64,000 bases of DNA from Escherichia coli (GTDB lineage: Bacteria; Pseudomonadota; Gammaproteobacteria; Enterobacterales; Enterobacteriaceae). The position numbers and the translations under genes were made by a program. The notes beneath the pieces are model-generated. The model was not told the origin of the DNA. It saw only the letters and a program-made list of their open reading frames with translations, and made no database searches. Every line of letters starts with the position of its first letter. The stretch's first letter is position 1. Shown in pieces: positions 3,360-24,051 of the stretch. Location: NCBI RefSeq assembly GCF_009931435.1, contig NZ_CP043414.1; one strand, written 5' to 3'.

Positions 3360-4697
3360 ATGAACACTTCACCGGTGCGAATGGATGATTTACCACTTAA
3401 CCGTTTTCACTGTCGAATTGCTGCGCTGACTTTCGGCGCACACCTGACCGACGGTTATGTTCTCGGCGTCATTGGTTACGCCATAATTCAGCTTACTCCA
3501 GCCATGCAACTGACGCCGTTTATGGCGGGAATGATCGGCGGCTCGGCGCTACTTGGCCTGTTTATCGGCAGCCTGGTTTTGGGCTGGATCTCCGACCATA
3601 TCGGGCGGCAAAAAATCTTCACCTTCAGCTTTATGCTGATTACACTCGCCTCGTTCCTGCAATTTTTTGCCACCACGCCAGAGCATCTTATTGGACTGCG
3701 CATTTTGATCGGCATTGGGCTGGGAGGCGATTACTCAGTAGGCCACACCTTGCTGGCTGAATTTTCTCCGCGCCGCCATCGCGGTATTTTGCTGGGCGCA
3801 TTCAGCGTGGTGTGGACCGTAGGCTATGTGCTGGCAAGTATTGCCGGACATCACTTTATTAGCGAAAGCCCCGAAGCCTGGCGATGGTTACTTGCATCGG
3901 CGGCATTTCCTGCCCTGTTGATTACGTTGTTACGTTGGGGAACGCCAGAATCGCCACGCTGGCTACTGCGCCAGGGGCGTTTTGCAGAAGCTCACGCTAT
4001 CGTGCATCGCTATTTTGGTCCCCATGTTTTACTGGGCGATGAAGTGGCAACGGCGACCCATAAACACATCAAAACCTTGTTCTCTTCGCGCTACTGGCGG
4101 CGCACGGCGTTTAACAGTGTCTTCTTTGTCTGCCTCGTAATCCCATGGTTTGTAATTTACACCTGGCTGCCAACTATCGCCCAGACTATTGGACTGGAAG
4201 ATGCGCTGACTGCCAGCCTGCTGCTTAACGCGTTATTAATTGTGGGTGCGCTGCTGGGATTATTTCTGACGCACCTGCTGGCACATCGCAAATTTTTACT
4301 TGGCAGTTTTTTGTTGCTGGCGGCAACGCTGGTAGTGATGGCCTGTTTGCCTTCTGGCTGTTCATTAACGCTGCTGCTTTTTGTTCTCTTCAGTACCACC
4401 ATTTCGGCAGTCAGTAATCTGGTGGGCATTTTGCCTGCGGAAAGTTTTCCTACTGACATTCGCTCGCTGGGCGTCGGTTTTGCCACCGCCATGAGTCGGT
4501 TGGGCGCGGCGGTAAGTACTGGCCTGCTGCCGTGGGTGCTGGCACAGTGGGGAATGCAAGTCACCTTATTGCTCCTGGCGGCAGTGTTGTTGGTTGGTTT
4601 TGTTGTGACCTGGCTATGGGCGCCAGAAACCAAAGCACTCCCGCTGGTGGCGGCGGGAAATGTAGGAGGTGTGAATGAACATTCTGTTAGCGTTTAA
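3360..4697 (+). CDS. ygcS: MFS transporter (445 aa)
   Basis: ORF-track frame 3288..4697; start taken at ATG 3360 (MNTSPVRMDDL...) behind AAGGGG. Multiple TM segments and GR(Q/K) MFS signatures. Confidence 0.8.
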   Translation: MNTSPVRMDDLPLNRFHCRIAALTFGAHLTDGYVLGVIGYAIIQLTPAMQLTPFMAGMIGGSALLGLFIGSLVLGWISDHIGRQKIFTFSFMLITLASFLQFFATTPEHLIGLRILIGIGLGGDYSVGHTLLAEFSPRRHRGILLGAFSVVWTVGYVLASIAGHHFISESPEAWRWLLASAAFPALLITLLRWGTPESPRWLLRQGRFAEAHAIVHRYFGPHVLLGDEVATATHKHIKTLFSSRYWRRTAFNSVFFVCLVIPWFVIYTWLPTIAQTIGLEDALTASLLLNALLIVGALLGLFLTHLLAHRKFLLGSFLLLAATLVVMACLPSGCSLTLLLFVLFSTTISAVSNLVGILPAESFPTDIRSLGVGFATAMSRLGAAVSTGLLPWVLAQWGMQVTLLLLAAVLLVGFVVTWLWAPETKALPLVAAGNVGGVNEHSVSV

Positions 4698-12920: not shown

Positions 12921-13655
12921 ATGTCCAAACTCGATCTAAATGCCCTGAACGAACTGCCGAAGGTAGATCGCATTCTGGCGCTGGCGGAAACTAACGCCGA
13001 GCTTGAAAAACTGGATGCTGAAGGCCGTGTTGCCTGGGCGCTGGATAATCTGCCCGGTGAATATGTGCTTTCTTCCAGCTTCGGTATCCAGGCGGCGGTT
13101 AGTCTGCATCTGGTGAATCAGATTCGCCCGGATATTCCGGTGATCCTCACCGATACCGGTTATCTGTTTCCGGAAACCTACCGCTTTATTGACGAGTTAA
13201 CGGACAAACTCAAGCTCAACCTGAAAGTGTACCGCGCTACCGAAAGCGCCGCCTGGCAGGAAGCACGCTACGGCAAACTGTGGGAGCAGGGCGTTGAAGG
13301 CATTGAAAAGTACAACGATATCAACAAAGTCGAACCGATGAACCGGGCGCTGAAAGAACTGAACGCACAAACGTGGTTTGCTGGCCTGCGCCGTGAACAA
13401 TCCGGCAGCCGCGCTAATTTACCGGTGTTGGCAATTCAGCGTGGCGTATTTAAAGTGCTGCCGATTATCGACTGGGATAACCGAACTATTTATCAGTATC
13501 TGCAAAAACATGGCCTGAAATATCACCCATTATGGGACGAAGGATATTTATCGGTTGGTGATACCCATACAACCCGTAAATGGGAACCTGGTATGGCGGA
13601 AGAAGAAACGCGTTTCTTTGGCTTAAAAAGGGAATGTGGGCTGCACGAAGGGTAA
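12921..13655 (+). CDS. cysH: Phosphoadenosine phosphosulfate (PAPS) reductase (244 aa)
   Basis: ORF-track frame 12759..13655 runs through the REP element; start taken at ATG 12921 ([15 protein letters not shown]...) behind GAGGAA. Confidence 0.95.
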
Positions 13656-13672
13656 ATATTGCCGGATAAAAT

Positions 13673-13710
13673 AAACGCCTCTGTCAGAAATGATGGGGGC
13701 GTTTTTATTT
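13673..13710 (+). terminator. Candidate intrinsic terminator after cysH
   Basis: aaacgcc...ggcgttt stem followed by tttattttg. The loop is long, so confidence is modest. Confidence 0.4.
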
Positions 13711-13918
13711 TGCGAGCCGCATTCCGGCATTTAAACATGAATATAGCAGGGGAAATCAACAGTTATAGAATGGCGTCGGGTGCTTGAGGCTGTCTGGCGT
13801 TGAGCATTCGCGAGGTTCCAGATGGACAAAAGCCCCGGGCGATATTTCTATCAACCTGAGGCTCGCGTTCGAACGTAGCAATTCGAATGTTAGTCTCTTC
13901 TTTGCAGGGAGGCAAGAC

Positions 13919-14071
13919 ATGCTGACAAAATATGCCCTTGTGGCAATCATCGTACTGTGTTGTACAGTACTGGGATTCACGCTGATGGTAGGCGACTCGT
14001 TGTGTGAGTTGAGTATCAGAGAACGTGGTATGGAGTTTAAGGCAGTTCTCGCTTACGAACCGAAGAAGTAG
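13919..14071 (+). CDS. Hok/Gef-family type I toxin (50 aa, HokE-like); likely the hok of a hokX/sokX-type locus
   Basis: [50 protein letters not shown] has a single TM helix and the Hok signature SLCE...AYE. GGGAGG sits 6 nt before the ATG. Confidence 0.7.
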
Positions 14072-14076
14072 CCACC

Positions 14077-14098
14077 ACGCGGGGGTAAAACCCCGCGT
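14077..14098 (+). other. GC-rich stem-loop at the 3-prime end of the hok transcript
   Basis: acgcgggg gtaaaa ccccgcgt, an 8-bp perfect stem immediately after the hok stop. Confidence 0.4.
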
Positions 14099-14109
14099 AT
14101 TGAATTGTG

Positions 14110-14309
14110 ATGGTTTGGTCTCCTGCACCCTTTTTTTCATTTATATTGTTTTTGTGAATATTATGCCTGTGTTTATTATTTATATATATCACAGATGAAA
14201 ATCATTGAATTATTCATAATGTAAATATTTTATTGAACGATATATATCACAGATAATTTTTAATATATGCGTAAATATCCTTTAAGTTTTACTGAAGGAT
14301 AAAAACATT
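14110..14309 (+). promoter_or_regulatory. AT-rich cas3 upstream region with a tandem direct repeat
   Basis: About 200 bp of very AT-rich sequence; atatatatcacagat occurs twice about 60 bp apart (near 14182 and 14242). Confidence 0.35.
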
Positions 14310-16967
14310 GTGACTTTCTTTGATTTCTGGGGAAAAACCCGACGTGGCGAGAAAGAGGGTGGCGACGATTATCACCTTCTTTGCTGGCATTCGCTGGATG
14401 TAGCCGCGATAGGCTATTTAATGGTCAAAAACAACTGTTTCGGGCTGGCTGACTATTTTCGTCAATTAGGTTTCGCTGACACGGATCAGGCAGCACAATT
14501 TTTCGCCTGGTTGTTGTGCTGGCACGATACTGGAAAATTTGCCCGCTCATTTCAGCAACTTTACCTGCACCCACAACTCAAGGTTCCGGAAGGCGCAAGA
14601 AAGAATTACGAAAAGATCTCTCATTCAACGCTGGGTTACTGGTTGTGGCATCATTATTTAATTGAATGTGAAGAGTTGCTTCCTTCATCTTCACTCTCTT
14701 TGCGCAAACTTAAACGAGTAATAGATATGTGGATGCCCGTGACGACCGGGCATCATGGTCGGCCTCCTGACCGTATCGATGAACTGGACAACTTTCTGCC
14801 TGAAGACAAAGCTGCCGCACGGGATTTTCTCCTTGAAATCAAGGTACTGTTTCCGCTCATCGAGATCCCTACATTCTGGGATGATGACGAGGGCGTTGAA
14901 CTTATAAAACATTTTTCCTGGTATATCTCTGCAACCGTCGTACTCGCAGACTGGACGGGATCGTCAACGCGGTTTTTTCCACGCGTTGCACAGGCAATGG
15001 ATATTAAAGATTACTGGCAGAAGGCTTTAGTTCAGGCTCAAAACGCATTAACCGTCTTTCCCCCAAAAGCAGAAAGCGCGCCTTTCACTGGAATTAATAC
15101 GCTGTTTCCTTTTATTGAGAACCCAACACCGTTACAGCAAAAGGTGTTGGATCTGGATATCAGCCAGCCAGGACCACAGTTGTTTATTCTGGAAGATGTG
15201 ACTGGCGCAGGTAAAACAGAAGCGGCGCTTATCCTGGCGCACAGGTTGATGTCTGCGGGGAAAGCACAGGGTTTGTTTTTTGGCCTGCCAACAATGGCAA
15301 CGGCCAATGCCATGTACGATAGGCTGGTAAAAACCTGGCTTGCTTTCTATTCGCCACAATCCCGCCCCAGCCTGGTGCTGGCACACAGCGCTCGTTCGCT
15401 AATGGATCGCTTTAACGCATCGCTGTGGTCTGGTGATTTTGTGGGGTCAGAAGAACCGGATGAACAAGCGTTCAGTCAGGGATGTGCGGCCTGGTTTGCT
15501 GACAGTAACAAGAAGGCGTTGCTGGCTGAAATTGGCGTCGGCACGCTGGATCAGGCGATGATGGCGGTGATGCCGTTCAAACATAATAATCTGCGGCTTC
15601 TGGGGCTGAGTAACAAAATCCTGCTAGCCGATGAGATCCACGCCTGTGACGCTTATATGTCGTGCATTCTTGAAGGGCTGATCGAGCGGCAGGCGCGTGG
15701 CGGAAACAGCGTTATTTTGCTTTCTGCTACGTTGTCTCAACAGCAGCGTGACAAACTCGTCGCCGCCTTTGCGCGTGGTGCAGAGGGCCAGCAAGAAGCT
15801 CCGTTGCTGGAAAAAGATGATTATCCCTGGCTGACGCATGTCACGAAATCCGATGTGCATTCGCACCGGGTAGCGACGCGCAAAGACGTTGAGCGCAGCG
15901 TGAGTGTGGGTTGGCTTCATAGCGAACAAGAGTGTATTGCGCGTATCGAATCGGCGGTAAGTCAGGGGAAATGCATCGCCTGGATTCGGAATTCTGTCGA
16001 TGACGCCATCCAGGTTCATCGTCAGCTGCTTGCCCGCGGCGTCATTCCTGCTTCCAGCCTTTCACTTTTTCATAGCCGCTTTGCTTTCAGCGATCGCCAG
16101 CGAATTGAAACGGAGACGCTGGCACGCTTTGGTAAAGAAGACTGTTCACAGCGTGCCGGAAAAGTCCTCATTTGTACTCAGGTCCTGGAGCAGAGCGTCG
16201 ACTGCGACCTGGACGAAATGATTTCCGACCTTGCCCCTGTTGATTTACTGATCCAGCGAGCAGGGCGATTACAGCGACATATCCGCGATATTAATGGTCA
16301 GTTAAAGCGTGACGGTAAAGACGAGCGTCACCCTCCTGTATTGCTGATTCTGGCCCCCGTCTGGAACGACTCTCCGGGTGAAGAATGGTTTGGCTGTGCC
16401 ATGCGTAACAGTGCATTTGTCTATCCCGATCATGGGCGAATCTGGTTGACGCAGCGTGTGCTGCGTGAACAAGGCGCGATTCAGATGCCACACTCAGCCC
16501 GGCTTCTGATTGAATCAGTCTACGGTGAGGACGTGGTAATGCCGGAAGGGTTTGCCCGCAGCGAGCAGGAGCAAGTGGGCAAATACTACTGCGATCGTTC
16601 AATGGCTAATAAGTTTGTGCTGAACTTCAGGCCCGGCTATGCCGCCAATATCAACGATTACCTCCCGGAAAAACTGTCGACACGTCTGGCTGAAGAGTCT
16701 GTTTCCCTGTGGCTGGCTAGCTGTATTGGCGGTGTGGTGAAGCCTTATGCCACCGGTGCACACGCATGGGAAATGAGCGTTGTCAGAGTGCGCCAAAGCT
16801 GGTGGAAAAAACATCGGGATAAGTTTTCTTTACTGGAAGGGGATGCGTTCAGGCAGTGGTGCGTTGAACAGCGGCAAGATCCGGAGATGGCAAACGTGAT
16901 TTTGGTCACCGATGACGAAAGTTGTGGATATTCGGCTACGGAGGGATTGATTGGCAAGGTTGGTTGA
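14310..16967 (+). CDS. cas3: Type I-E CRISPR-associated nuclease/helicase Cas3 (885 aa)
   Basis: ORF track 14310..16967 (GTG start). HD motifs (LLCWHSLDVAA, WHDTGKF), Walker A (GAGKTEAAL) and DExH (DEIH) present. N-terminus resembles Salmonella-type Cas3 rather than K-12 YgcB (from memory). Confidence 0.9.
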   Translation: MTFFDFWGKTRRGEKEGGDDYHLLCWHSLDVAAIGYLMVKNNCFGLADYFRQLGFADTDQAAQFFAWLLCWHDTGKFARSFQQLYLHPQLKVPEGARKNYEKISHSTLGYWLWHHYLIECEELLPSSSLSLRKLKRVIDMWMPVTTGHHGRPPDRIDELDNFLPEDKAAARDFLLEIKVLFPLIEIPTFWDDDEGVELIKHFSWYISATVVLADWTGSSTRFFPRVAQAMDIKDYWQKALVQAQNALTVFPPKAESAPFTGINTLFPFIENPTPLQQKVLDLDISQPGPQLFILEDVTGAGKTEAALILAHRLMSAGKAQGLFFGLPTMATANAMYDRLVKTWLAFYSPQSRPSLVLAHSARSLMDRFNASLWSGDFVGSEEPDEQAFSQGCAAWFADSNKKALLAEIGVGTLDQAMMAVMPFKHNNLRLLGLSNKILLADEIHACDAYMSCILEGLIERQARGGNSVILLSATLSQQQRDKLVAAFARGAEGQQEAPLLEKDDYPWLTHVTKSDVHSHRVATRKDVERSVSVGWLHSEQECIARIESAVSQGKCIAWIRNSVDDAIQVHRQLLARGVIPASSLSLFHSRFAFSDRQRIETETLARFGKEDCSQRAGKVLICTQVLEQSVDCDLDEMISDLAPVDLLIQRAGRLQRHIRDINGQLKRDGKDERHPPVLLILAPVWNDSPGEEWFGCAMRNSAFVYPDHGRIWLTQRVLREQGAIQMPHSARLLIESVYGEDVVMPEGFARSEQEQVGKYYCDRSMANKFVLNFRPGYAANINDYLPEKLSTRLAEESVSLWLASCIGGVVKPYATGAHAWEMSVVRVRQSWWKKHRDKFSLLEGDAFRQWCVEQRQDPEMANVILVTDDESCGYSATEGLIGKVG

Positions 16968-17063
16968 TATGCCTGCGACAGGATTCTCTGAATAGTTGAT
17001 ACACAAAAAAGGATGGAAGGATGGATAACCGACCTGGGATGGTCTTTTTACGAGAGGATGCGT

Positions 17064-18626
17064 ATGAACTCGTTTTCACTTCTGACAACCCCGTGGTTGC
17101 CCGTTCGTTATAAAGACGGAACGACAGGCAAACTGGCGCCAGTCGATCTGGCGGATGAAAATGTTGTCGATATCGCTGCGCCGCGGGCAGATCTCCAGGG
17201 TGCGGCATGGCAGTTTTTGCTGGGACTACTACAAACCAGCTTCGCGCCCAAAAATCACGGTCGTTGGGATGATATATGGGAAGACGGACTGGAAGCTGAA
17301 AAGCTAAGGGAAGCATTGCTGTCTTTAGAACATGCTTTCCAGTTTGGCCCAGATTCCCCTTCATTTATGCAGGATTTCGAGGCGCTTACGGGAGATAAAG
17401 TTCCTGTCGCTTCGTTACTGCCTGAAATTCCCGGCGCTCAAACAACGAAGTTCAATAAAGACCACTTTATTAAGCGTGGCGTGACTGAACACATATGCCC
17501 TCATTGTTCCGCGTTAGCGCTGTTTTCCCTACAGTTAAATGCGCCGTCAGGCGGCAAAGGCTATCGCACCGGTTTGCGCGGCGGTGGGCCAATGACGACG
17601 CTGATTGAATTACAGGAATATCAGGGCAATCAACAAACACCCTTGTGGCGCAAACTGTGGCTCAACGTGATGCCGCAGGATGAATCTGACTTACCGCTAC
17701 CCAAAAAATTTGGCGATCTGGTTTTCCCCTGGCTTGGCCCGACGCGTACCAGTGAACTGGCCGGTGCGGTGGTAACTGATGATCAGGTCAACAAACTCCA
17801 GGCGTACTGGGGAATGCCTCGGCGCATACGTGTTGATTTTAATACCACGACAGTCGGCAACTGCGATATTTGCGGTGAGCAGAGCGACGCGCTCCTGAGC
17901 CTGATGACGACCAAAAATTACGGTGCGAATTATGCCATGTGGCAGCATCCCTTAACGCCCTACCGTATACCACTTAAAGAGGGCGGCGAGCTTTACTCGG
18001 TTAAACCACAACCGGGCGGTTTAATCTGGCGCGACTGGCTAGGACTTATCGAAACGGGTAAGTCAGAAAACAATACGGAACTTCCCGCGCTGGTGGTGAA
18101 ACTCTTTAATGCCAGCAGTCTGAAACAGGCAAAAGTGGGCCTGTGGGGATTTGGCTATGATTTCGACAACATGAAAGCGCGCTGTTGGTACGAACACCAT
18201 TTCCCGCTACTGCTCAATAAAAAAGAAGGCCAGATACCAAAGCTGCGGCTGGCTGCGCAAACGGCTTCACGGATTCTAAGTCTGTTACGGAGTGCATTGA
18301 AAGAAGCATGGTTCTCCGATCCAAAAGGTGCACGGGGTGATTTCAGTTTTGTGGATATCGACTTCTGGAACAAAACTCAGCATCGCTTCCTGAGGTTAGT
18401 GCGTCAAATTGAAGAAGGTCAGGAGCCGGATGAATTACTCAGCAAATGGCAAAAGGAAATGTGGTTATTCGCGCGTCAGGATTTTGACGAGCGGGTATTC
18501 ACTAATCCTTATGAGCCCGTTGATTTGAAACGCGTCATGACCGCGCGCAAGAAATATTTTACAACATCGGCGGAGAAGCAAAGTGCTAAAGCCGCCAGGG
18601 AGAAAAAGCAGGAGGCTGCTGAATGA
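17064..18626 (+). CDS. casA: Type I-E Cascade large subunit Cse1/CasA
   Basis: ORF-track frame 17013..18626; start taken at ATG 17064 (MNSFSLLTTPWLPV...) with GAGG 6 nt upstream. ATG 17058 is an alternative. Confidence 0.8.
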   Translation: MNSFSLLTTPWLPVRYKDGTTGKLAPVDLADENVVDIAAPRADLQGAAWQFLLGLLQTSFAPKNHGRWDDIWEDGLEAEKLREALLSLEHAFQFGPDSPSFMQDFEALTGDKVPVASLLPEIPGAQTTKFNKDHFIKRGVTEHICPHCSALALFSLQLNAPSGGKGYRTGLRGGGPMTTLIELQEYQGNQQTPLWRKLWLNVMPQDESDLPLPKKFGDLVFPWLGPTRTSELAGAVVTDDQVNKLQAYWGMPRRIRVDFNTTTVGNCDICGEQSDALLSLMTTKNYGANYAMWQHPLTPYRIPLKEGGELYSVKPQPGGLIWRDWLGLIETGKSENNTELPALVVKLFNASSLKQAKVGLWGFGYDFDNMKARCWYEHHFPLLLNKKEGQIPKLRLAAQTASRILSLLRSALKEAWFSDPKGARGDFSFVDIDFWNKTQHRFLRLVRQIEEGQEPDELLSKWQKEMWLFARQDFDERVFTNPYEPVDLKRVMTARKKYFTTSAEKQSAKAAREKKQEAAE

Positions 18627-19159
18627 GTATTGTAAAAGAGGAGCACAAAGCCACGCTGCGCAAATGGCACGAGGAATTGCAGGAAAAACGCGGCAATCGT
18701 GCCAGTCTGCGGCGTAGTACGACGGTTAATGATGTTTGTTTGTCAGAAGGGTTTCGTTCTCTGCTGATGCAGACCCACACGTTGTGGAAAGTTGAAGCGC
18801 AAGAGTGGCGTTTTACCGCACTGGCACTGGTCGCTGCAGTTAGCGCCAATGTAAAAGCCATTGATGAACGGCAGCCTTTTGCCGCGCAGCTGGCGGCAGT
18901 AATGTCAGAAGGGCGGTTTTCGCGCCTGTCGGCAGTAAAAACGCCGGATGATTTACTGCGCCAGTTACGTCGCGCGGTCAAATTATTAAACGGTTCCGTC
19001 AATCTTATCTCTTTGGCAGACGATATTTTCCGCTGGTGCCAGGAGAGTGACGACCTGCTCAACCATCACCGCCGTCAGCAGCGGCCAACAGAATTTATCC
19101 GTATCCGCTGGGCGCTGGAATATTACCAGGCTGGCGACGCCGATAACGAACAAAATTAA
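18623..19159 (+). CDS. casB: Type I-E Cascade small subunit Cse2/CasB
   Basis: ORF track; start overlaps the casA stop (ATGA) behind AGGAGG. Confidence 0.85.
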   Translation: MSIVKEEHKATLRKWHEELQEKRGNRASLRRSTTVNDVCLSEGFRSLLMQTHTLWKVEAQEWRFTALALVAAVSANVKAIDERQPFAAQLAAVMSEGRFSRLSAVKTPDDLLRQLRRAVKLLNGSVNLISLADDIFRWCQESDDLLNHHRRQQRPTEFIRIRWALEYYQAGDADNEQN

Positions 19160-19173
19160 TAAAGGACTATCTC

Positions 19174-20229
19174 ATGACGACATTTATTCAGCTCCATTTG
19201 TTAACCGCTTACCCTGCAGCCAACCTTAACCGTGATGACACCGGTGCGCCGAAAACCGTGGTGCTGGGTGGAGCAACGCGTCTGCGCGTTTCCTCGCAAA
19301 GTCTGAAACGTGCGTGGCGCACTTCTGCACTTTTTGAACAGGCGCTGGCGGGCCATATTGGTATTCGTAGTGGGCGTATCGCGCGCGAGGCAGCAACTAT
19401 CATGATTGAGAAAGGAATCGAAGAAAAAAAAGCCATCGAATGGGCGGCAGATATTGCCGATTATCTTGGTAAAGCCAAAAAAGACAAAAAAACAAAAGAT
19501 CCGCTCACTAACGCTGAAACTGAACAGCTCGTCCATATCAGCCCTGCAGAATTTGACGCCGTAAAAGCGCTGGCCCATCAACTGGCAGAAGAAAAGCGCG
19601 CGCCAAAAGAGGACGATCTCGCTTTGTTACGTAAAGATCGTATGGCGGTAGATATCGCCATGTTTGGTCGTATGCTGGCGAATAAACCCGAGTTTAATGT
19701 TGAAGCCGCCTGTCAGGTCGCGCACGCGTTTGGTGTCAGTGAAACGATTGTCGAAGATGATTTTTTCACCGCCGTTGATGATTTGCGCCAGGCCTCTGAA
19801 GATGCTGGTGCAGGGCATCTTGGTGAAACTGGGTTTGGTTCTGCGCTGTTCTACACCTATATCTGCATTGATAAAGATCTGCTGGTCGAAAACCTCGGCG
19901 GTGACGAAGCATTAGCTAATCAGACCCTGCGCGCCTTTACGGAAGCAGCGTTTAAAGTTTCCCCAACCGGTAAACAAAACAGCTTTGCCAGCCGTGCCTA
20001 CGCCTCCTGGGCGCTGGCAGAAAAAGGCACCGAACAACCGCGTTCTCTGGCGGCGGCTTTCTATGAACCCATTAATGGCACACGTCAGTTAGATGTGGCA
20101 GTGCAGCGTATTACAACGCTTCGCGAAAACATGAATACGGTTTACGAACAGAAGACCGAATGCGCAAGTTTTGACGTGATGAACAAACAGGGAAGCATGA
20201 AGGACGTGCTGGACTTTATCTGCGCGTAA
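19174..20229 (+). CDS. casC: Type I-E Cascade backbone subunit Cas7e/CasC
   Basis: ORF track; 351 aa with N-terminal ...AANLNRDDTG... typical of Cas7e. Confidence 0.9.
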   Translation: MTTFIQLHLLTAYPAANLNRDDTGAPKTVVLGGATRLRVSSQSLKRAWRTSALFEQALAGHIGIRSGRIAREAATIMIEKGIEEKKAIEWAADIADYLGKAKKDKKTKDPLTNAETEQLVHISPAEFDAVKALAHQLAEEKRAPKEDDLALLRKDRMAVDIAMFGRMLANKPEFNVEAACQVAHAFGVSETIVEDDFFTAVDDLRQASEDAGAGHLGETGFGSALFYTYICIDKDLLVENLGGDEALANQTLRAFTEAAFKVSPTGKQNSFASRAYASWALAEKGTEQPRSLAAAFYEPINGTRQLDVAVQRITTLRENMNTVYEQKTECASFDVMNKQGSMKDVLDFICA

Positions 20230-20239
20230 GGGGCGGCTT

Positions 20240-20986
20240 ATGAGCCAATATCTGATTTTTCAGCTTCATGGGCCAATGGCATCCTGGGGCGTTGATGCAC
20301 CCGGTGAGGTGCGTCATACCCATGAACTGCCTTCGCGTTCAGCATTGCTGGGGCTGCTGGCTGCCGGGTTAGGGATACGGCGTGATGACACCGAATGCTT
20401 AAACGCGTTTAATCGCCACTATTCACTGGTGGTTTGCGCCAGCCGTAACCCGCGCTGGGCACGGGATTATCACACGGTCCAGATGCCAAAAGAGGTGCGT
20501 AAAGCGCGTTATTTCAGCCGTCGCGAAGAGTTGAGCGACCCTGATCTTCTAAGCGCGATTATCTCCCGGCGCGACTACTACACCGATGCCTGGTGGATGG
20601 TGGCCGTGGCAACAACAGCTGATGCGCCTTACAGCCTCGAACAGTTGCAGGAAGGTTTACGCCATCCGGTTTTTCCGCTTTATCTGGGGCGAAAAAGCCA
20701 TCCGCTGGCGTTACCCCTTGCGCCGTTACTGCTCGAAGGCAACGCGTCTGATGCCTTACGTACCGCATATCAACAGTATCAGGATCGTTTCCACGAACTA
20801 AAAGTCTCACTCCCGAAACTTCAGGATGAATGCTGGTGGGAAGGGGAACACGACGGCCTGGTCGCGAGCAAAATATTACGCCGCCGGGATGTTCCTTTAA
20901 ATCGTCAGCAGTGGCTGTTTGGGGAACGCACTGTCAATCAGGGGCCGTGGCTCAGCAAGGAGGAACCATGTACCTCTCAAGAATAA
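20240..20986 (+). CDS. casD: Type I-E Cascade subunit Cas5e/CasD
   Basis: ORF track; ...LHGPMASWG...SALLGLLAAGLGIRRDD... matches the Cas5e pattern. Confidence 0.85.
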   Translation: MSQYLIFQLHGPMASWGVDAPGEVRHTHELPSRSALLGLLAAGLGIRRDDTECLNAFNRHYSLVVCASRNPRWARDYHTVQMPKEVRKARYFSRREELSDPDLLSAIISRRDYYTDAWWMVAVATTADAPYSLEQLQEGLRHPVFPLYLGRKSHPLALPLAPLLLEGNASDALRTAYQQYQDRFHELKVSLPKLQDECWWEGEHDGLVASKILRRRDVPLNRQQWLFGERTVNQGPWLSKEEPCTSQE

Positions 20987-21614
20987 CCTTACATACCGGC
21001 CAGCTTTCCCCAGCGCAGTTGCTGCATCTGGTGGATCGCGGTGAATATGTGATGCATCAGTGGCTGTGGGATCTTTTCCCTGGCGGCAAAGAAAGGCAAT
21101 TTCTTTATCGTCGGGAAGAACTCCAGGGCGCGTTTCGCTTTTTTGTCCTGTCGCAGGAACGCCCGGCGGAAAGTGAAACGTTCACCATCGAATGCCGGTC
21201 ATTTGCGCCGGAGCTGCGTACCGGACAATCCCTTTTTTTCAACCTGCGAGCGAATCCAACAGTCTGTAAAGCGGGTAAGCGCCACGATCTGCTGATGGAG
21301 GCGAAACGGCAGGTGAGGGGGCAGGCGGAAGGAAGTGATGTCTGGTTGCATCAACAACAGGCGGCGCTGGGCTGGCTGGCTGCGCAGGGAGAGAGAAGTG
21401 GTTTTACACTGCTGGATACCTCGGTCGATGCCTACCGACAACAGCAACTGCGGCGGGAAAATGCCCGGCAACTGATCCAGTTCAGTAGCGTGGATTATAC
21501 GGGGATGCTGACGGTCACCGAGCCAGGGTTATTTCTGCAACGTCTCTGCCTGGGGTATGGCAAAAGCCGGGCGTTCGGCTGTGGTCTGATGTTAATCAAA
21601 CCCGGAGCAGAGGC

Positions 21615-21618
<4 letters not shown>
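20968..21618 (+). CDS. casE: CRISPR repeat endoribonuclease Cas6e/CasE (216 aa)
   Basis: ORF-track frame 20830..21618; start taken at ATG 20968 (MYLSRITL...) behind AAGGAGG, overlapping the casD 3-prime end. C-terminal GKSRAFGCGLM motif. Confidence 0.85.
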
Positions 21619-22828
<1,210 letters not shown>

Positions 22829-22924
22829 GTTACCCGTTCTTTAAAAATAAGGAAATGTTTGAATTTAGTTGGTAGATTGTTGATGTGGAATAAAATTGTT
22901 TAAAAACAGATACGTATGCTTAGT
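22829..22924 (+). promoter_or_regulatory. CRISPR leader (AT-rich, between cas2 and first repeat)
   Basis: About 96 bp of AT-rich sequence between the cas2 stop and repeat 1; position and composition fit a type I-E leader carrying the array promoter. Confidence 0.6.
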
Positions 22925-24051
22925 GTGTTCCCCGCGCCAGCGGGGATAAACCGTGGATTATGACGCCAGAGAGCTTCCTGTTTGCGTGTTCCCCGCGCCA
23001 GCGGGGATAAACCGCTGGCTAATAACATCCCACTGAATATTATTTCGTGTTCCCCGCGCCAGCGGGGATAAACCGAGGTGTGGCATGCGGGGAATTATGA
23101 TCCGGTAGTGTTCCCCGCGCCAGCGGGGATAAACCGTGACAACGGCCGGCCGCTCTTTTTGCGGTCATGTGTTCCCCGCGCCAGCGGGGATAAACCGATC
23201 ATCGGCATCATCTCGTGATACTCATCCGGCGTGTTCCCCGCGCCAGCGGGGATAAACCGCCCAGGCTTTACGTGAGCTGGCGGATGTGGCCGTGTTCCCC
23301 GCGCCAGCGGGGATAAACCATACGGTCAAGCGATATCAGGGGTACTGTGTCGTGTTCCCCGCGCCAGCGGGGATAAACCGGGCGCCGCATCTTTATCGTA
23401 AAGCATGTAAAGGTGTTCCCCGCGCCAGCGGGGATAAACCGACCGCTCACACCCAGACAAGCGCCACTAACGTGTGTTCCCCGCGCCAGCGGGGATAAAC
23501 CGAACGCCGCATCAGCTAAATACGCTAAAAAAATGTGTTCCCCGCGCCAGCGGGGATAAACCGCGGCTGATACTCAGGAGCAGGCCAGAGAGCGTGTGTT
23601 CCCCGCGCCAGCGGGGATAAACCGTACCACCTGTGTATTGAGTTACGTCGCCGGGGGTGTTCCCCGCGCCAGCGGGGATAAACCGGAGCTTCATCGGTGG
23701 TTCTGGGAGCAACGGGAGTGTTCCCCGCGCCAGCGGGGATAAACCGGCACAAGTGACTACATCAAGGATGGGGAATGGGTGTTCCCCGCGCCAGCGGGGA
23801 TAAACCGATTAACATTGCAATTGAATTGACGCGTATGAGGTGTTCCCCGCGCCAGCGGGGATAAACCGCAGGCAGCACGGCGGGTTTTGCCCGGATATTT
23901 GTGTTCCCCGCGCCAGCGGGGATAAACCGCAAAACCAATAGGTGCTTTCCACATTGCAGAAGTGTTCCCCGCGCCAGCGGGGATAAACCGCTCTCGGTTC
24001 TGGGGTACTGTTACCCATAACTGAGCTCCCCCGCGTCAGCGGGGGAACTCC
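22925..24051 (+). CRISPR. Type I-E CRISPR array: 19 repeats (18 canonical plus one degenerate terminal repeat), 18 spacers
   Basis: 29-nt repeat gtgttccccgcgccagcggggataaaccg at a 61-nt period from 22925; spacers 31-33 nt. Terminal repeat gagctcccccgcgtcagcgggggaactcc is degenerate; one internal repeat near 23292 ends in A instead of G. Confidence 0.95.

Follow-up and report, generated by a model that had tools for sequence, protein, structure and literature searches.

Organization of the type I-E locus

The window (the whole 64,000-nt stretch of DNA analysed here) comes from Escherichia coli, and one housekeeping stretch in it shares 99.3% identity with many E. coli genomes. cysI and cysH are followed by a hok/sok module, which precedes a full type I-E cas cluster on the (+) strand; next come a CRISPR array of 29-nt repeats and iap. 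The signature set of the subtype (cas3, cse1/cas8e, cse2, cas7, cas5, cas6e, cas1e and cas2e) lies in a single orientation at 14310-22828 (+), with all eight genes scoring above cut-off in I-E-specific NCBIfam models, in that order. The first of them, cas3 (14310-16967, +), is an open reading frame of 885 aa with a GTG start and a TGA stop at 16965-16967; its product matched the NCBIfam profiles cas3_core (7e-63) and cas3_HD (2e-24), and residues 1-884 align to the Cas3 of relatives. It is followed by cse1 (casA/cas8e; 17064-18626, +), encoding 520 aa that matched TIGR02547 at 2.7e-183 and are 74-77% identical to the Cse1 of Citrobacter and Salmonella. The remaining genes, placed by the list of open reading frames together with NCBIfam, are cse2 (18623-19159), cas7 (19174-20229), cas5 (20240-20986), cas6e (about 20968-21618), cas1 (21615-22538) and cas2 (22535-22828), all on the (+) strand and, from cse2 to cas2 (18623-22828), overlapping or tightly packed. 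The adjacent CRISPR array (22925-23990, +) is built of 29-nt repeats (GTGTTCCCCGCGCCAGCGGGGATAAACCG) at a 61-nt period, a spacing of about 61 nt being characteristic of I-E repeats. Its leader occupies 22829-22924, a variant-specific CRISPR2.1 leader (L1) being among the marks of the cas-E1 variant (Almendros et al. 2014).

Several features of this region varied between genomes. An in-frame TAA (14300-14302, within the stretch 14268-14312) stands just before the cas3 GTG at 14310; in another E. coli genome of the same cas variant (L086), the cas3 call begins 14 codons further upstream, giving 899 aa, and the RefSeq annotation of the closest genome (NZ_CP027579.1) lists cas3 as a pseudogene with a frameshift. 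The hok/sok-type module (13778-14071, +) between cysH and cas3 comprises an Rfam sok match (RF01794, 103 bits) at 13778-13934 and a Hok/Gef coding sequence at about 13919-14071, and the closest genome has a Hok/Gef family protein at the corresponding position in its RefSeq annotation. The module looks intact; the cysH terminator precedes it and the cas3 upstream region follows, a site at which K-12 keeps only sokX. Inside cse1 (17356-17625), pairwise diversity among the Escherichia copies of this variant reached 0.2-0.27, compared to about 0.06 in the flanks, a peak driven by the sub-variant of L086 and L087 (Cse1 83% identical). This looks like a recombination mosaic, which fits the divergent cse1-cse2-cas7 block reported for B171 and E22.

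The cas module of the window is the known cas-E1 variant, one of the two I-E variants described in E. coli; cas3-cse1 junctions of this kind have been seen before, and the locus does not represent a new system type. Under the cas-E1/E2 nomenclature, K-12 carries E2 (Almendros et al. 2014, PMC3903273). Of the two cas3 primers whose sequences are given in the same paper, the E1-specific cas3E1-R matched 14349-14368 with 2 mismatches, where 0 matches are expected by chance, and the E2 primer cas3E2-R had no match in the window within 3 mismatches. The site and gene order are likewise those described for cas-E1, namely cysH-hok/sok-cas3...cas2-CRISPR2.1-iap (PMC3903273; Diez-Villasenor et al. 2013, PMC3737337). 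Over cas3-cse1, however, most other E1 genomes are only about 94% identical to the window, the best match reaching 98.7%.

The cas3-cse1 junction and the start of cse1

The distance between the cas3 stop and the cse1 start, put at about 96 bp in the earlier note, proved to be 96 nt exactly, the intercistronic gap (16968-17063, +; 44.8% GC) extending from the cas3 TGA at 16965-16967 to the cse1 ATG at 17064. A Shine-Dalgarno sequence, GAGAGGA (17052-17058, +), is positioned 5 nt before this ATG; it is invariant in all Escherichia copies, present in locus L010 and one base off in locus L084 (GAGAGGT). The Cse1 N-terminus MNSFSLLTTPWLPVR is kept in homologues from Citrobacter, Salmonella and Phytobacter, and in the closest genome RefSeq uses the start equivalent to 17064, leaving a gap of 97 nt there. 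Since the spacing of GAGAGGA, the cross-genus N-terminus, the boundary of the Cse1 profile and the RefSeq start agree, cse1 was taken to start at 17064.

A second in-frame ATG (17013-17015, +), at which the longest open reading frame begins and just upstream of which lies AAAAAAGG, would give a 537-aa Cse1 and a true gap of 45 nt, turning most of the 'intergenic' sequence into coding sequence. We rejected this start, which we regard as barely credible. Between the two ATGs, 8 nt are missing from E. albertii and Escherichia sp. MOD1, an indel that breaks the frame, and the start of the longest reading frame differs widely among close relatives. The TIGR02547 profile, moreover, aligns only from residue 22 of the longer protein onwards (21 residues downstream), and both the choice of RefSeq and the conservation of the N-terminal MNSFSLLT across genera favour the shorter protein. 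In the alignments, the E. coli copies carry an 8-nt tandem duplication (GGATGGAA followed by GGATGGAT; 17011-17026, +) of a unit that E. albertii and Escherichia sp. MOD1 have only once; this duplication accounts for gaps of 96 or 97 nt in E. coli versus 89 nt in the other two. The remaining difference between 96 and 97 nt stems from a run of five thymines (T5) in the window versus six (T6) in most E. coli.

Among seven Escherichia copies, nucleotide diversity in the gap was about 0.06, like that of the flanking cas3, and dropped to 0.02 only over the translation-initiation region (17027-17115). The most conserved part of the gap also holds a weak hairpin, GACC-TGGGAT-GGTC followed by T5 (17031-17049, +), with a 4-bp stem, a predicted energy of -6.0 kcal/mol and a position 15-20 nt before the Shine-Dalgarno sequence. 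The hairpin and its T5/T6 run are conserved in Escherichia and partly so in L084 and L010, and the gap's 3' half can be recognised in part in L084 (81-nt gap) and in Intestinirhabdus (176-nt gap).

Regulatory signals within and upstream of the junction

A consensus scan detected no sigma-70-like and no terminator-like site in or near the gap. With a position-weight matrix, the best promoter score in the 563 nt before cse1 was 5.85, compared to 8.61 +/- 1.77 in shuffled sequence (96% of the shuffles scored at least as well), whilst the K-12 gap, used as a positive control, scored 10-11 on both strands; scans of both kinds overlook promoters that are non-canonical or depend on an activator, and coding sequence often contains internal promoters. 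Nothing in the gap qualified as an intrinsic terminator (a G+C-rich stem of >=5 pairs with a T-run), the sole candidate being the 4-pair stem (-6 kcal/mol, T5), which falls below the 5-pair threshold. Predicted folding of the gap was unremarkable (z = 0.61), and Rfam gave no match within it, its only hits, sok and a ctRNA below threshold at the cysH terminator, lying upstream of cas3. The closest approach to a CRISPR repeat in the gap was a match of 12/29. A search for a CreR-type mini-array across 13601-22900 returned 11 repeat-like matches (at least 16/29) versus 10.98 in shuffles, none of them intergenic. Residual homology to the 414-nt gap of K-12 was likewise lacking, with no blastn match at E below 0.1 and only chance-level and CRISPR-repeat matches. 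The window junction therefore does not contain an AT-rich regulatory region of the K-12 type with sigma-70 promoters on both strands.

Such a composition does occur immediately upstream of cas3, where 14100-14309 (+) forms the only strongly AT-rich segment of the locus (24% GC over 14100-14299; 16% in the lowest 100-nt window) and is a candidate promoter and H-NS-type regulatory region. The top sigma-70-like sites of 13.6-17.3 kb cluster in this tract, for example TTGTGA-16-TATTAT at 14152-14179, and two identical 15-nt direct repeats (ATATATATCACAGAT; 14182-14196 and 14240-14254), 58 nt apart, could form a pair of regulator-binding sites. Base composition favours H-NS nucleation upstream of cas3 and disfavours it at the junction, and from these features we infer that 14100-14309 acts as the promoter and H-NS-type control region of the whole cas3-to-cas2 operon.

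A comparable tract precedes cas3 in loci with a tight junction (Escherichia E1, Citrobacter, Phytobacter, Salmonella and Klebsiella grimontii), where the lowest 100-nt GC is 16-27%. Loci with gaps of 151-414 nt (Klebsiella indica, Intestinirhabdus and K-12) have no such tract, and their minimum GC upstream of cas3 is 38-45%. Within this small sample of 12-14 loci (L004-L014, L082 and L086 versus L010, L066 and K-12), the pattern suggests that an AT-rich control region sits either before cas3 or between cas3 and cse1, but not both.

Distribution of junction types in E. coli and across type I-E systems

The window-type junction was found in 2431 of 5426 complete E. coli genomes (about 45%), at 93-98.5% identity and with a gap of 96-97 nt, and the K-12-type junction in 1128 of the 5426 (about 21%). 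On these counts (2431 versus 1128 complete genomes), the short gap is the commoner state within E. coli. Beyond the species, we used a Cse1 alignment as query, with one genome per species, and measured the cas3-cse1 distance in each of the 79 loci recovered. cas3 was co-oriented and upstream in 57 loci and divergent in 6, and a further 16 had no cas3 within 4 kb upstream. The co-oriented loci had a median gap of 97 nt: cas3 and cse1 overlapped or abutted (0 to -20 nt) in 12, lay 1-100 nt apart in 17 and 101-200 nt apart in 3, and were separated by more than 200 nt (up to about 3 kb) in 25 of the 57. A gap of at most 100 nt was accordingly present in 29 of the 57 co-oriented loci, and junction length was very labile overall, ranging from -20 nt to over 3 kb in the sampled loci. 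In a published survey of type I-E systems, cas3-cas8e gaps above 200 bp occurred in only 20% of loci and the short form was called 'typical' (PMC10120712). The long gap of K-12 is therefore the exception among type I-E systems, belonging to that 20% minority. The earlier note had presented the short gap as a deviation from a K-12 norm, a framing that these distributions invert, as the short form is both the commoner one in E. coli and the typical I-E layout. The window gap is short relative to K-12, but not relative to other I-E systems.

The closest relatives outside Escherichia (Citrobacter youngae, Citrobacter sedlakii, Phytobacter, Klebsiella grimontii and S. enterica) have gaps of 10-11 nt and a Cse1 69-76% identical to that of the window; in more distant relatives, cas3 and cse1 overlap. 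A Logan contig (SRR22859383; L083), with a Cse1 80% identical to that of the window, has a 479-nt cas3-cse1 gap (3522-4000) containing two degenerate I-E repeats, CTTATCCCCGCTGACGCGAGGAACGAC and TGGTTCATCCCCTCTGAATGAGAGGACAGG, antisense to the cas genes and with about 32 nt between them, in addition to a 52-aa open reading frame placed by the gene caller. These repeats are likely to form a mini-array of the CreR type, in a locus closely related to the E1 module. A 7-kb contig (JAIJJM010000114.1; L003) in a MAG assigned to Collinsella sp., carries an E. coli E1 cas3-cse1 region with a 97-nt gap and a Cse1 96% identical to that of the window; this E1 region in an actinobacterial MAG is probably a binning contaminant.

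Transcription of the cas genes

We consider it probable that the window carries a standard cas-E1 junction within a single cas3-to-cas2 operon that would be driven from upstream of cas3. RNA polymerase would start at the AT-rich region just upstream of cas3 (about 14100-14309) and produce one transcript spanning cas3-cse1-cse2-cas7-cas5-cas6e-cas1-cas2. The 96 nt would serve as an intercistronic spacer and as the 5' leader of cse1, containing its ribosome-binding site and the small conserved hairpin with a T-run, and would be devoid of a promoter, an efficient terminator or an H-NS-type AT-rich tract. A plausible consequence is that any silencing or activation of this AT-rich region would affect Cas3 together with Cascade, as opposed to the separate Pcas of K-12. 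The anatomy, prevalence and comparative layout of the junction are direct observations, from which we infer the single transcript and the location of its promoter. Co-transcription of cas3 with the Cascade genes, as the earlier note had proposed, is consistent with the sequence because the gap has no terminator, a promoter score below chance and 45% GC, and because relatives have 10-11-nt or overlapping junctions. That proposal is partly supported. The searchable literature yielded no usable transcript mapping for any E1 strain or EHEC cas, and neither of the two papers that describe cas-E1 (PMC3903273 and PMC3737337) takes up the gap between cas3 and cse1 or how E1 genes are transcribed.

Two other accounts of the junction were weighed against this operon. 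cse1 may have its own promoter, in the gap or at the 3' end of cas3 and perhaps dependent on a LeuO-like activator, with cas3 transcripts attenuated at the hairpin and T-run and with Cas3 and Cascade regulated separately. The conserved GACC-N6-GGTC hairpin with T5/T6 (17031-17049) could attenuate read-through, but its stem of only 4 base pairs fails the terminator criteria. Within the junction, diversity is lowest (0.02 versus about 0.06) over the last 35 nt of the gap plus the initial 50 nt of cse1, but the ribosome-binding site and start codon lie here and explain the conservation without a promoter. TTGATA hexamers are present at 16964 and 16996, although neither has a -10-like partner, the best score of 5.85 is reached by 96% of shuffles and the junction region is not AT-rich. 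In K-12 and S. Typhi, cas3 and cse1 are known to form separate units, whereas the 10-11-nt or overlapping junctions of the relatives of the window leave no space for one. Taken together, an independent cse1 unit appears unlikely.

The second account concerns origin, and is compatible with co-transcription: the 96 nt would be the decayed remnant of a longer regulatory spacer, with a Cascade promoter and a CreR mini-array, and functionless beyond the ribosome-binding site. Relatives of the L083 type (Cse1 80% identical) do have a 479-nt gap with two degenerate repeats around a spacer of about 32 nt, the K-12 gap also has a degenerate repeat and a published mini-array (PMC10120712), and junction length is labile from -20 nt to over 3 kb. 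The sampled loci, however, do not resolve insertion versus deletion, the best repeat match in the gap is 12/29 and locus-wide matches are at chance (11 versus 10.98). A resemblance between the window gap and the second L083 repeat region (CTCTGAAT-N11/12-AAAAAAG) is too weak to establish homology. We would give such a remnant little chance of being correct.

A more speculative extension of the single operon concerns the roughly 45 conserved nt before cse1 (hairpin, T5/T6 and Shine-Dalgarno sequence). This stretch is common to L084 and partly to Intestinirhabdus, and is absent from the 11-nt junctions of Salmonella and Citrobacter. Only three divergent lineages carry the hairpin, and alternative pairings exist for it. 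The stretch might be a regulatory device of Escherichia-type E1 modules that adjusts the ratio of Cas3 to Cascade in a single H-NS-silenced operon, through attenuation, RNase processing or the binding of a protein; we hold this to be improbable. If true, interference in the commoner E. coli variant would run under a different logic from that of K-12.

Comparison with known systems

A layout close to that of the window is the 'cas-STM'-type of S. enterica, shared with Citrobacter, Phytobacter and Klebsiella grimontii, in which cas3 and cse1 are co-oriented and an AT-rich tract lies upstream of cas3. Their Cse1 is 72-77% identical to that of the window, the cas3-cse1 spacing is too small to accommodate a regulatory region, and cas3 has been treated as a member of the cas operon. 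Their gap is 10-11 nt as opposed to 96 nt here, the Escherichia copies having about 85 extra nt that include the hairpin and T-run. Experiments on this Salmonella type lend the single operon indirect support: in S. Enteritidis, deletion of cas3 raised expression of cse1 20-fold and of the other cas genes 7-9-fold (PMC7168661). Authors working on S. [quoted passage not shown] Enteritidis as read-through from the constitutively expressed cassette replacing cas3. The effect may instead reflect Cas3-dependent regulation; in either case, the data come from a relative whose Cse1 is only about 75% identical to that of the window.

The 'cas-STY'-type of S. Typhi shares with the window a type I-E system, a cse1-to-cas2 operon and a host within Enterobacteriaceae. 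Unlike in the window, its cas3 lies on the opposite strand, an arrangement seen in six sampled loci, and in S. Typhi cas3 is an independent, divergent transcription unit (PMC8039139). The S. Typhi transcription data were considered as the nearest experimental analogue and dropped: because cas3 is divergent there, those experiments are not transferable to the window layout. S. enterica as a whole has two I-E architectures at one cysH-linked site, one with cas3 co-oriented and an 11-nt gap (L082) and the other with cas3 inverted and about 357 nt of shared divergent sequence between it and cse1 (L088), in keeping with what is published for S. Typhi. This pair of architectures parallels the E1/E2 split of E. 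coli.

The cas-E2 locus of K-12 has the same subtype, gene order, orientation and chromosomal site as the window, and a nearly identical CRISPR repeat. From cas3 to cas6e, between the sok region and cas1, the two nevertheless have no detectable DNA homology, and the window Cse1 is only 21% identical to K-12 CasA. The several-hundred-bp cas3-cse1 region that the earlier note gave for K-12 was confirmed as 414 nt in MG1655 (NC_000913.3; end of cas3 at 2884553, start of casA at 2884138), with 29.5% GC compared to 44.8% over the 96 nt of the window. The K-12 gap has a degenerate repeat and, on each strand, strong promoter-like sites, all of which are absent from that of the window, and conversely K-12 has no AT-rich tract upstream of cas3. 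The degenerate CRISPR repeat of MG1655 (CGGTTTATCCCTACTTAAGTAGGGAAGGTG; gap positions 43-72 in the cas direction) is antisense to the cas genes, with the repeat stem replaced by a different palindrome, and corresponds to the published regulatory mini-array of the K-12 gap (PMC10120712).

The region between cas3 and casA in K-12 combines Pcas, an H-NS/LeuO-controlled promoter, with anti-Pcas, H-NS, LeuO and CRP sites and the regulatory mini-array. Regulation of CRISPR-Cas in E. coli is known mostly from this strain, in which Pcas is silenced by H-NS and LeuO, CRP and LrhA act as activators, and in which the mini-array and Cas3 as a limiting factor form part of the same picture. Caution on extending K-12 regulation has been raised in general terms (Almendros et al. 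2014, PMC3903273). The Pcas/H-NS/LeuO/mini-array region is physically absent in the E1 layout, which calls for the same caution when K-12 regulation is transferred to natural isolates. Because the K-12 circuitry is physically absent at the E1 junction, regulation of E1 needs separate study. Ultimately, where K-12 places a dedicated control region between cas3 and casA, the E1 layout probably couples expression of Cas3 with that of Cascade.
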